A DNA stretch of 64,000 bases. Origin: Syntrophaceae bacterium UBA6078 (GTDB lineage: Bacteria > Desulfobacterota > Syntrophia > Syntrophales > UBA2210). Of this stretch, positions 3,933 to 18,837 are shown in pieces. The DNA is taken from NCBI GenBank assembly GCA_002428735.1, contig DIXO01000020.1:2554-66553 (forward strand). Reading direction: 5' to 3'. The translations under genes and the position numbers were made by a program. A model generated the notes under the pieces. That model was not told the DNA's origin. It did no database searches and worked only from the letters and a program-made list of their open reading frames with translations. How positions within the stretch are numbered: the first letter of the stretch is position 1; each line of letters begins with the position of its first letter.

Positions 3933-4009
3933 CGCGGGGTGGAGCAGTCAGGTAGCTCGTTGGGCTCATAACCCAAAGGTCGGAGGTTCAAATCCTCCCC
4001 CCGCTACCA
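3933..4009 (+). tRNA. initiator tRNA-fMet (anticodon CAT)
   Basis: A 77-nt cloverleaf was folded by hand. Acceptor CGCGGGG/CCCCGCU has a C1:U72 mismatch. The anticodon stem has three consecutive G-C pairs (GGG/CCC) flanking CUCAUAA. T-arm GGAGG-UUCAAAU-CCUCC, and CCA is encoded. Confidence 0.9.
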
Positions 4010-4018
4010 AACAATTAT

Positions 4019-4053
4019 AAGGGGTTAGATTAAAATCTAGCCCCTTTTTCTTT
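4019..4053 (+). terminator. rho-independent terminator downstream of tRNA-fMet
   Basis: Hairpin AGGGGTTAGAT-TAAA-ATCTAGCCCCT followed by TTTTCTTT. Confidence 0.7.
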
Positions 4054-4055
4054 AT

Positions 4056-4089
4056 CCTGAAAGCTGATTTCCAACCCTATTTCCAACCC
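4056..4089 (+). repeat. TTTCCAAC-containing repeat, copy 1 (candidate integrase arm-type site)
   Basis: CCTGAAAGCTGATTTCCAACCCTATTTCCAACCC recurs at 4245-4275, and the TTCCAACCCTATTTCCAACC part recurs at 18643-18662. Confidence 0.5.
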
Positions 4090-4244
4090 ACCCATAACCA
4101 GTATCGCTCAGTGAAATGTAGTGGGAGCGTAATGTAGCGCGTCTTGATTCCCTGATGTGGTCTGCGCGAGAGGCGCGCTCAAGGTGGCATTGTCGGGAAA
4201 AAAGGTAATGAAGAATACTTCCCTTCTTTAATCCCAGACTCAAG

Positions 4245-4275
4245 CCTGAAAGCTGATTTCCAACCTTTTTCCAAC
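4245..4275 (+). repeat. TTTCCAAC-containing repeat, copy 2
   Basis: CCTGAAAGCTGATTTCCAACCTTTTTCCAAC. It is preceded by a degenerate copy of the terminator tail (CCCTTCTTTAATCC). Confidence 0.5.
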
Positions 4276-4635
4276 TGCCTTTTCAGGATTACTGAGAGCC
4301 GAACGGCCATGCCTGATCGTTGCTCCTGTGCCATCCTCGCGAGGCGTGAGCCAACATTCAGCATACCGCTGACATTGGCGGGATGATCATGCGGGGGAAG
4401 CCCAGAAACACGAAACGAGGTTGCGCAAATTACCTGAATGGATTTTCCTGAAATAATGAAAAGATTATCACCGTAGTTGCTGTTGCTTGCCAATCATTAT
4501 TTATTGAAGTCGAGGATTTGAAGAAAAGTGCTTGTGTGGCAGGTTTCTTTTGGTAATGAGCAAGAGGAATCAGGGAGAAAATGAATGAGGTTGGATATGC
4601 CCTCACCGATAATTATTGCGCAGTAAGCTCCGTGA

Positions 4636-16469: not shown

Positions 16470-16590
16470 TGAATTTTGACGGGAGAGTAAAATAAGAAAA
16501 CTCCCGAGCCATTGTGTGAACCGAGAGTAATTGAAGGTTATAATGATTGGAATGACACGATAAAAAAAATTCTATCGTATTGGGGAAAAG

Positions 16591-17265
16591 TTAAGATAGG
16601 GGTTTGTATTTACCGGGGAAGTTGCCTTTTTCGACGTTCTTAATTATTTTTTTTGCAATGCTTATGGACCTACTTATTTGACTTTCGGACATATAGGCTT
16701 CATCCGTAGTCCGCCCACTTTTGATCTTCTTGGAAAATATCAAGGCAACATCCTGCAATGCTTTCAGGCTTTTGCCTTGTTTCTGCCCTTTGTATAACTT
16801 AAGGTATAAGGCAAGCTCAGGTACTACCCTTGCCCCTGGCTCTGTCCAGGTTTGATAGAACTCACGTACCTGCTCGGCGTTCTTCATTTTCTCCTTAAGC
16901 CTTGTTCGCACTTCCTGCAGAACAACTTCCTGCCCGCCTCGTGGTCTAACGCCTGCGGAATGAATGAACAACAGTAAGTTTGTTTCCTCCTGCATCTTGA
17001 CATTTTGCATCAAGCGTTTTTTCACTTTCTCGAAAGAGGTGTCATCACCTTGGATTGCTTCGTTGTATGCTTGGTCAATAAGAGTTTCTAAGATTTCAGA
17101 TATTGGACAGACCGTCGGCCAAGGAGTAAGGGGTCCCGGATCTTTGGCGCTGGCTTTGATACGTGATATATATTCGAGGTATCTTGCTTCTCCGTGAATC
17201 TCCTTAAAACTCGATGCATTTAAATAATCGAGCCACAATTTAGAAATGTTCTTTCTATTAAACAT
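16591..17265 (-). CDS. hypothetical protein (224 aa), no recognisable family
   Basis: A long ORF in a low-GC segment between int and the alpA-like gene, on the same strand. The C-terminus MSESQISRSISIAKKIIKNV is possibly HTH-like. Confidence 0.6.
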   Translation of the reverse strand: MFNRKNISKLWLDYLNASSFKEIHGEARYLEYISRIKASAKDPGPLTPWPTVCPISEILETLIDQAYNEAIQGDDTSFEKVKKRLMQNVKMQEETNLLLFIHSAGVRPRGGQEVVLQEVRTRLKEKMKNAEQVREFYQTWTEPGARVVPELALYLKLYKGQKQGKSLKALQDVALIFSKKIKSGRTTDEAYMSESQISRSISIAKKIIKNVEKGNFPGKYKPLS

Positions 17266-17420
17266 CGCCTATCCTTTCGTTCGGTTTTTCTCATCGATCC
17301 GTAAACGGAGAAGGATTCTCTCGCTTGTCGATTCGGTTCATGACGTCAGTCTTATCCGCGACTTTTCCCCTTAAAATTTGCCTCCAAGCATCGACCTTTT
17401 TCAAGACATGCTTCCCATCG

Positions 17421-18590
17421 TTACGCCGAGGTGGTCTCCTTTTCGCGATTTTCAGCATTGACTACCTGATCAATGATAGATCCTGCCAAGTTTGATGCAC
17501 TCCGCAAGGTTTCATCTCGAAGATGGGCATATCGCTGTGTCATGGCAGGGCTCTTATGTGTGAGAAGCCGCTGGATCGTGTAAAGGTCTACTTGGCCGCT
17601 GCTGGCCAGGTTAGAGGCGAAAGCGTGTCTTAATCCGTGCATCGGGCGGAAATCTTTAGGGAGCCCTGCAGCATCCCGGATTGCCCGAAATGCCTTAGCG
17701 TTATTTATACCCGAAAAAACGAGACGGGACTCAGTTGAACGAGGTCGATTGGCCAAAAGCTCACGTGCTGAGTCGGACAATGGGATTGTTTGATCCGGTC
17801 CGCCCTTTGGATCTTTGATTGATATGAATCCCCGCCTGAAGTCAATATCATCCCATTGTAGTTTGGAGATTTCTCCCGCTCTCATGCCGGTGTATAGCGC
17901 CATCAACATCGCTTCCCTTGCATCACGGTTCAGTGCAGTTACCTTTCCGTTTTGATCGGTAACTGTTCCTTCTCGGAGAACCCTAAGAAGATTTTCCATT
18001 TGCTCATGGTTTAAGTCTTCGGTTTTGATATTATTCACCGTCGGCATCTCAATCCGAAATCCTGGTGTATTGCATAGCTGCTTTTTGGTGGCATAACTTA
18101 TGATTCGACGAAGTAGTTCTAAGACATTCCTGACAGTCGCTGGTTTTTGTGTCTTTAGGAGCTTAATACGGATTCGGTCTACATCCAATGGGACAAGCTC
18201 AGACGGTTCTTTGTTGCCAAGGCTCGGATCAATATGCAACCTGAACCGACACTCATCTTGAACGAGTCCCTTTAGGTTGGTGTGATTCTTTTTGTATTCA
18301 TCCCAAAGTTTCTTAATAGTCCATTTCTCGGTAATAAACCTTTCTGCCTCCCTCTTCTCAGGTCGAGTTTGCCGCTTCCCCTCAATGAGTTGTCCTCGAA
18401 TTCGTGCAGCCCGTGCCGCCGTCATATCATCAGCATACTGACGGCCAGCTTTTTCTTCATAAACCTTTCCATTTTTTTTGAAAACAACATAGAAAACTTT
18501 TTCTTTTCCCTTTCCTCCGATCCGAACTGCCTCACGATAAAAAACACCGGGATATTCTGTTTTGTGTCTTTTCATTTTCTCCCTCTCCAT
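17421..18590 (-). CDS. int: tyrosine recombinase / phage-type integrase
   Basis: Catalytic signature TGMRAGE (R), HGLRHAFAS (HxxR) and LLTHKSPAMTQRYAHL (H...Y). It lies 200 bp from the tRNA-derived repeat. Confidence 0.9.
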   Translation of the reverse strand: MEREKMKRHKTEYPGVFYREAVRIGGKGKEKVFYVVFKKNGKVYEEKAGRQYADDMTAARAARIRGQLIEGKRQTRPEKREAERFITEKWTIKKLWDEYKKNHTNLKGLVQDECRFRLHIDPSLGNKEPSELVPLDVDRIRIKLLKTQKPATVRNVLELLRRIISYATKKQLCNTPGFRIEMPTVNNIKTEDLNHEQMENLLRVLREGTVTDQNGKVTALNRDAREAMLMALYTGMRAGEISKLQWDDIDFRRGFISIKDPKGGPDQTIPLSDSARELLANRPRSTESRLVFSGINNAKAFRAIRDAAGLPKDFRPMHGLRHAFASNLASSGQVDLYTIQRLLTHKSPAMTQRYAHLRDETLRSASNLAGSIIDQVVNAENREKETTSA

Positions 18591-18642
18591 TTATTAAAAC
18601 AAGGATCAATGAGTACGCATTTCGATATGCCCAGAATTATTA

Positions 18643-18662
18643 TTCCAACCCTATTTCCAACC
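18643..18662 (+). repeat. TTCCAACC repeat, copy 3 (between the int start and attR)
   Basis: TTCCAACCCTATTTCCAACC is identical to 4070-4089. Confidence 0.5.
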
Positions 18663-18787
18663 TAAATAATAATAAAACAGGTATTTCACGGTAAGTCAAG
18701 GGAATATTTATTTATGTAAGTAGCTTATAATTCAATAAATAAATGGAGTGTTGGTAAAAATCGGGAAATGACGGTAACAGATATTAC

Positions 18788-18837
18788 TTGGGCTCATAAC
18801 CCAAAGGTCGCAGGTTCAAATCCTGCCCCCGCTACCA
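18788..18837 (+). repeat. attR: displaced 3' half of a tRNA-fMet gene
   Basis: TTGGGCTCATAACCCAAAGGTCG is identical to 3960-3982. The following T-arm is GCAGG-TTCAAAT-CCTGC, with compensatory changes relative to the intact gene, then CCCCGCTACCA. Confidence 0.85.

Follow-up and report, generated by a model that had tools for sequence, protein, structure and literature searches.

The DNA analysed here, called the window below, is a 64,000-nt stretch of contig DIXO01000020.1 (positions 2,554 to 66,553) of Syntrophaceae bacterium UBA6078. Its subject is a 14.8-kb island, which encodes a tyrosine integrase and lies between the initiator tRNA gene (tRNA-fMet) and a second, detached copy of that gene's 3′ half. 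The intact gene, a tRNA-Met(CAT), is the one tRNA gene that ARAGORN and Rfam find in the window, and it shows the hallmarks of an initiator, in that positions 1 and 72 are unpaired and the anticodon stem is closed by three G-C pairs in a row. Among the 42 tRNAs found in the draft genome (82 contigs, 99.5% complete) this gene is the sole initiator, the two further genes with a CAT anticodon having different bodies. Counted from the start of one copy to the start of the other, the island measures 14,828 nt, and every gene from 4179 to 18590 lies on the minus strand (Table 1).

The two copies of the tRNA 3′ half

A first-pass annotation of this DNA had described the intact gene and a 50-nt 3′ copy as identical over 23 nt only, as differing beyond that by paired substitutions that keep the T-stem base-paired, and as remaining similar past CCA into the terminator hairpin. 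All of this was confirmed. Identity is exact between 3960-3982 and 18788-18810, and the 50 nt contain only two mismatches, 3983/18811 and 3997/18825; together these make up one T-stem pair (G-C in the gene, C-G in the fragment). The T-stem reads GGAGG/CCTCC in the former and GCAGG/CCTGC in the latter. Two random substitutions would restore one Watson-Crick pair with a chance of about 0.003. Past CCA the copies stay similar through the terminator hairpin (99 nt ungapped, 85%), with mismatches at 2/50 positions in the tRNA part versus 13/49 in the next stretch (Fisher p=0.002). A match count from global alignment, the first test of the flanks, was uninformative, and local scores were used instead: the two post-CCA flanks score 39, while shuffled sequences reach a mean of 14.3 and a maximum of 28. 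Among flank pairs at the tRNA-fMet locus across the family this similarity is in the top 8%, which is not exceptional. The 26-nt 3′ tRNA pattern itself occurs twice in the window, versus zero occurrences expected.

The fragment by itself gives no tRNA call. When the gene's 5′ part and the fragment are joined in silico, ARAGORN calls tRNA-Met(CAT), and the cloverleaf energy of the joined version is −29.8 kcal/mol, compared with −30.0 kcal/mol for the present gene. Furthermore, the fragment's T-arm is identical to that of the intact initiator tRNA in two relatives, G013 and G015. Since the fragment is near-perfect and its T-arm belongs to an intact tRNA in these genomes, both halves appear to have been working until recently. 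These results uphold the view that both copies are functional-type tRNA halves, and the fragment is the gene's previous 3′ half.

Position of the crossover

Recombination had been placed within the 23 identical nucleotides, and our analysis supports this: as the crossover lies to the left of 3983 and to the right of 3959, it is bounded by that block. Other loci of the integrase family suggest that the range may be narrower, from the anticodon loop onward. The identity blocks at loci L038 and L042 begin at the first anticodon-loop base, and the left limits across the family run from the loop's first base to 5 nt into the stem. By analogy with integration sites of the anticodon-centred class (PMC4383910; bioRxiv 10.1101/2020.11.02.365908), the 7 nt of the anticodon loop would be the most likely place of strand exchange.

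Origin of the DNA that follows the initiator tRNA

The stretch at 4010-4200, immediately after the intact gene, also follows the tRNA in the closest relative, G001, and displaced fragments in G003 and G004. We considered whether it is native host flank and rejected this, as the same module occurs in an island within a tRNA-Asp gene (L051) and a matching motif lies in the integrase-proximal arm. L051 (IMGVR_UViG_3300032516_004062, 1-14028) is a 14-kb element from IMG/VR that has an integrase 57-60% identical to ours, the identical 20-nt arm motif and a conserved AlpA-like gene; it sits in a tRNA-Asp(GTC) gene and is bounded by a 41-nt repeat starting in the anticodon loop. Its tRNA-proximal end carries a module of the 4010-4090 type, with the hairpin, the T-run, a short conserved tail and the TTTCCAACC pair, but its genuine host flank has none of these elements, so the module travels with the element. 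With the module being island DNA, the tRNA 3′ half between the crossover and the module is element DNA as well.

We therefore consider it highly probable that the cell's sole initiator tRNA consists of a resident 5′ part and an island 3′ part, brought together by insertion of the 14.8-kb island. The proposal that the expressed initiator tRNA is a hybrid is thus supported, both by the arm motif in the DNA after the gene and by the recurrence of the module in L051. The displaced copy should not, however, be taken for the native host half, since its probable source is an earlier island related to this one.

In G003 and G004, the module appears to mark older islands of the same family that were pushed outward by later insertions. 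Between two decayed tRNA fragments in G004 (L028, G004:C57, 3050-3300), a truncated N-terminus of an IS256/mutator-type transposase was recognised, by eye only, with a palindrome-rich stretch adjacent; this remnant hints at how an older island could have shrunk to 1.1 kb. L051 also represents a natural case of retargeted core specificity with conserved arm sites, and at a further locus, L054, the same motif follows a tRNA-Arg(TCT)-like 3′ end.

The integrase and its linkage to tRNA-fMet fragments

The integrase gene starts 197 nt from the tRNA fragment and reads away from it. Its catalytic set, R-K-H-x-x-R-H-Y, is intact, with R237, K262, H318, R321, H345 and Y354 invariant in a six-sequence alignment. 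Against the NCBIfam models for Xer and integron integrases it scores 55-89 bits, where the cut-offs are 220-335. Among relatives of solved structure, XerA and HP1 Int come closest, with matches confined to the catalytic domain, and residues 1-100 match neither a Pfam domain nor a P4-type N-terminal domain.

A search of the genome collection yielded twelve integrase loci from metagenome-assembled genomes (MAGs) of Syntrophales, Desulfobacterales and Desulfovibrio type. At L036, L037, L038 and L042, the integrase start is preceded, at a distance of 190-270 nt, by a tRNA-fMet 3′ fragment in antiparallel orientation; homologues in G004 (52% identity) and G011 (29%) are likewise placed beside such a fragment, and at L039 an entire 2.7-kb mini-island is contained in one contig. 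Counting L039 and the tRNA-Asp element L051, the fragment lies upstream of the integrase in this same arrangement (190-270 nt, antiparallel) in eight other loci examined, and in all of these, as here, the integrase is at the fragment end and not beside the intact tRNA. The location of the integrase (17421-18590) at the distal (attR) end, which the first-pass annotation had pointed out, is thus the rule for this family and no anomaly. Because the relatives of the integrase elsewhere adjoin tRNA-fMet fragments, the two copies in the window are tied to it and are not unrelated gene fragments.

Attachment-site anatomy and arm motifs

The 20-mer TTCCAACCCTATTTCCAACC is found about 60 nt past the tRNA end (4069-4088) and again about 130-145 nt before the fragment, on the integrase side (18643-18662). 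Exact motifs common to the P′ and P arms are present in other islands too, but are island-specific: an 18-mer in G013, a 14-mer in G011, an 11-mer in G004 and a 23-mer at L039. Counting shared 9-mers between arms was uninformative, as about half of the shuffles scored, and longest exact runs and period-12 tests were used instead. A direct pair with a period of 11-12 was detected in 10 of the 11 integrase-proximal arms examined (8-12 nt in eight, 6 nt in G013); the arm in G004 has a single motif copy only. On the other side, 10 of 28 distinct tRNA or fragment flanks have a significant motif pair starting 47-68 nt after CCA. Across the family, the layout is one of period-12 pairs about 125-150 nt upstream of the core and 47-80 nt past the tRNA end. 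The N-terminal ~60 residues of the integrase fall into classes that appear to follow the arm-motif class, with few sequences compared. We read the motif pairs as putative arm-type binding sites of a heterobivalent integrase.

Two further observations concern the arms. The P arms here (18663-18760), at L039, at L051 and in G004 share a conserved stretch between the arm pair and the core, which consists of ACAGGTATTT, a few bases and an GGTAAGTCAA-like sequence and could be an integrase promoter or a site for an accessory protein. In the left arm, an extra copy of TTTCCAACC is present at 4257-4265, and a 26-nt direct repeat of 92% identity (4056-4081 versus 4245-4270) brackets a 189-nt unit. G001 has just the second unit, directly after its terminator, and G003 and G004 have the first, so that the left arm of the island varies by duplication or deletion between close species.

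T-stem variation across the family

Among 38 genomes of the family, 27 matched the 3′-half pattern, with at least 10 base-paired T-stem variants. The variants are patchy, with three in this genus and two each in several others, and variation in the 5′ part of tRNA-fMet is confined to the D-loop. Replacements are recorded in arrays: GCAGG to GGAGG in the window, and GTCGG to GGAGG to GTCGG in G004. The initiator tRNA 3′ half may, as we tentatively propose, be a mobile-element-borne segment in this Syntrophales-like family, the T-stem diversity stemming from successive islands with the same integrase and not from vertical compensatory evolution. Against this, the T-stem is the least constrained part of the initiator tRNA. 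Nor were T-stem variants found to be strictly associated with arm-motif classes, the TTTCCAACC module occurring with both GGAGG and GTCGG. Owing to these two points, we hold island turnover at somewhat below an even chance.

One genome, G047, has two full-length tRNA-fMet genes (G047:C88 and G047:C99; L049 and L050), with T-stems GTCGG and AGAGG. Either the second copy is genuine or the MAG is contaminated.

The right flank and alternative explanations

The DNA to the right of the fragment bears on the source of the displaced half. Its first 80 nt retain pieces of the module, namely parts of the hairpin, the TTTTTCTTT tail and CTATTTCCAA, the last at an offset of +69 after the fragment, versus +68 in the island. 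The G+C content of 18838-25853 is 40-48%, versus about 55-58%; no syntenic match to this segment was found in 40 relatives, and it is only at 25854 that synteny with G001 returns. Islands are stacked in tandem in G003, G004, L038 and L039, and the module follows the fragment in G003 and G004. It is reasonably likely, judging from these sequence features, that a previous island of this family brought in the displaced half; the DNA at 18838-25853 would then be what is left of that island, a decayed left arm with about 7 kb of cargo. In that case the locus has grown by tandem accretion, and the original host 3′ half can no longer be seen.

A competing explanation, which we regard as unlikely but still to be reckoned with, is a single integration into the native gene: the fragment and everything to its right would be the original chromosome, GCAGG/CCTGC the host half, and the likeness of the flanks a matter of shared terminator ancestry. 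Several observations that weigh against an earlier island agree with it. No integrase remnant was found in 18838-25853, nor an outer tRNA fragment near 25.85 kb (at up to 3 mismatches, and by eye); the attR flank has one decayed motif copy and no significant pair; and this flank is no closer to the P′ module than are some other family terminators, in keeping with its rank within the top 8% of flank pairs. The right-flank cargo, moreover, is ordinary metabolism. A single native integration, on the other hand, has to account for 7 kb of low-G+C DNA that occurs in no genus relative, for a 10-nt motif match at the arm-site offset of the island, and for the fact that GTCGG/CCGGC, not GCAGG/CCTGC, is the T-stem met most often in the genus, among intact genes as well as outermost fragments.

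Two more explanations would do away with the difference in ancestry or with the insertion itself. In one, attP equals the host gene and the T-stem changed after integration, through decay of the fragment or compensatory evolution. Fragments do decay in relatives (G004, G007, G011 and L039), but there decay has produced unpaired single changes, whereas here one Watson-Crick pair is restored, in a fragment otherwise perfect and followed by a flank mismatched at 13 of 49 positions; the fragment's version is also a working tRNA in G013 and G015. We consider this explanation very improbable. In the other, a local duplication or an assembly join simulates an insertion, and the 15 kb are ordinary chromosome. 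A draft in 82 contigs leaves room for such errors, but both junctions are inside one 85.7-kb contig, integrase relatives lie beside the same fragment in eight other loci examined, relatives are without the interval, and a 20-nt motif is common to both ends, placed as it is in other islands, which makes this explanation scarcely credible.

Comparison with relatives likewise speaks for an insertion. The left flank (a cyclase gene and the tRNA) is syntenic in G001 at 92% identity, and the island matches nothing in five genus relatives, save its first 150-580 nt and two small multi-copy repeats; the 15 kb as a whole are hence not conserved core, the alternative that the first-pass annotation had named. 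Some findings weigh against our preferred reading of a resident/island hybrid. In G001, the initial ~580 nt of the island are present at core-like divergence, whereas the integrase and the restriction-modification (R-M) genes are not; the left end could thus predate the remainder of the island, or the island could be a mosaic. No empty site with this flank was found among the relatives, the right flank being non-syntenic in 40/40, and a scan of metagenomes for the attR junction, by which an unoccupied site would be recognised, gave 0 hits. As no empty site was recovered, we infer the order and direction of events; the same goes for the exact point of crossover, for integrase binding at the motif pairs and for mobility today.

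The right flank also contains two non-coding segments, 19113-19326 (~215 nt) and 18931-19070 (~140 nt), which many relatives carry in 1-5 copies per genome, at 70-87% identity. In some copies the 84-aa frame is interrupted by stops, and the segments have no Rfam match even at E<=1 and no common downstream gene. They may represent a dispersed repeat or an RNA.

Gene content of the island

The Type I R-M system is complete by gene set, as hsdR, hsdM and hsdS are present together, and the defence cargo spans 4636-13276. In the mobility/maintenance module, orf189 has a weak match to replication initiators. A stretch of ~320 nt inside the island (14441-14760) recurs in G003 and G004 at 83-96%, and one of ~90 nt at the left end (4496-4585) recurs at several places in G007, G003 and G004; both look like small dispersed repeats or mobile modules.

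Table 1. Features of the tRNA-fMet island and its flanks, in window coordinates (ORF, open reading frame).
Feature	Position	Strand	Evidence or remark
Intact tRNA-Met(CAT) initiator gene, attL	3933-4009	+	ARAGORN, Rfam
Anticodon loop CTCATAA, candidate overlap region	3965-3971	+	Inverted stem arms TTGGG/CCCAA, 3960-3976
T-stem difference sites, second T-stem pair (gene positions 51:65)	3983 G, 3997 C in gene; 18811 C, 18825 G in fragment	+	Alignment of the copies
Island P′ module: terminator hairpin 4021-4044, T-run, TTTCCAACC pair 4068-4076 and 4080-4088	4010-4090	+	
104-aa ORF, function unassigned, island left end	4179-4493	-	Stretch ~90% identical in G001
hsdR, Type I R-M	4636-7674	-	Defence cargo
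RhuM-Fic gene (PADLOC PDC-S23)	7671-8675	-	Defence cargo
hsdS	8672-10099	-	Defence cargo
AbiD/Abi_2	10063-10968	-	Defence cargo
orf87 (87-aa ORF)	10965-11228	-	Embedded in R-M operon
hsdM	11225-13276	-	Defence cargo
Repeat array, 34-nt period	15262-15349		Beside orf189
Mobility/maintenance module: orf189, orf112, AlpA-like gene, orf224	15264-17265	-	
AlpA/HTH_17 excisionase-like gene	16206-16469	-	Counterpart conserved in L051
Tyrosine integrase, 389 aa	17421-18590	-	PF00589, 9.5e-27
P-arm motif pair TTCCAACCCTATTTCCAACC, putative arm-type integrase site	18643-18662	+	Exact 20-nt copy of 4069-4088
Displaced tRNA-fMet 3′ half, attR	18788-18837	+	50 nt, T-stem GCAGG/CCTGC
Fragment flank: terminator hairpin 18848-18872, single CTATTTCCAA 18906-18915	18838-18916	+	Same offset as island P′ module
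Low-G+C block: two multi-copy non-coding repeats, coenzyme A (CoA)-transferase A/B, tripartite ATP-independent periplasmic (TRAP) transporter DctPQM, orf150	18917-25853	+	Not in genus relatives

Discussion

The events at this locus most probably proceeded as follows. The 14.8-kb island encodes a tyrosine integrase, putatively of the heterobivalent type, and the core of its attP would copy the anticodon stem-loop of tRNA-fMet; a complete tRNA 3′ half would follow in the attP, and after it a terminator and two arm-type sites. When this attP recombined with the gene in the chromosome, the promoter and 5′ part already resident there would have been linked to the island's 3′ half, displacing the previous 3′ half 14.8 kb downstream, where it would have come to lie beside the integrase. 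The cell's single initiator tRNA would thereby have become a resident/element chimera with the T-stem pair of the island type.

While the mechanism of insertion is textbook, the locus is an unusually clean natural record of it, as a compensatory base pair shows which portion of an essential tRNA the island contributed and confines the crossover to 23 nt. In addition, an attP layout is described for an uncharacterised integrase family, with the core at the anticodon loop and arm pairs of period 12; the arm motifs vary from island to island, apparently in step with the N-terminus of the integrase. If island turnover is true, islands drive the sequence turnover of the initiator tRNA across a bacterial family. 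In anaerobes that are hard to manipulate, integrases with a defined target in tRNA-fMet could also be of use for inserting DNA into the genome.

Several known systems invite comparison. Heterobivalent integrases of the lambda/P22 type have arm-type sites on both attP arms, and P22 Int integrates at thrW. The island resembles these systems in having the core at a tRNA anticodon stem-loop, direct repeats unrelated to the core on both arms and a small AlpA/Xis-like gene nearby. It differs in that sequence likeness to solved integrases (XerA, HP1 Int) covers the catalytic domain alone, which does not establish membership, and in that the element is without phage structural genes; arm binding is predicted from the sequence. 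The layout of P4-like pathogenicity islands is not seen, because the integrase is at the fragment end and not beside the intact tRNA, and its N-terminus has no match of the P4 type. As for the cargo, defence islands having a Type I R-M system with embedded Abi and Fic genes show the same operon make-up (hsdR/S/M, AbiD and RhuM-Fic PDC-S23), and by their standards the cargo is ordinary.

Integration by the ICEAfe1 integrase of Acidithiobacillus ferrooxidans needs only ~19 bp around a tRNA anticodon loop (bioRxiv 10.1101/2020.11.02.365908), a length that matches the minimal identity blocks of the family studied here. ICEAfe1, however, is a conjugative element (an integrative and conjugative element, ICE) in another tRNA, whereas our island has no recognisable conjugation genes.

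The closest likeness in kind is to class A of Islander (PMC4383910; Hudson, Lau & Williams 2015), in which 2083 of 3919 islands are anticodon-centred and 125 tandems are reported. The locus has the features by which such islands are recognised: a 3′ fragment in the same orientation, a PF00589 integrase that is neither of the Xer nor of the integron type, a length within 2-200 kb and absence from relatives. An anticodon-centred attP is indicated by an identity block that begins at 3960, on the 5′ side of the anticodon stem, and extends as far as the tRNA 3′ end, the stem providing symmetry around the loop. As in class A, an intact tRNA and a same-orientation 3′ fragment bound a tyrosine-integrase interval, the island restores the gene, and tandems occur. 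What sets this case apart is that the halves differ by a compensatory pair, that the target is the sole initiator tRNA, and that the host is an uncultured, Syntrophales-like bacterium.

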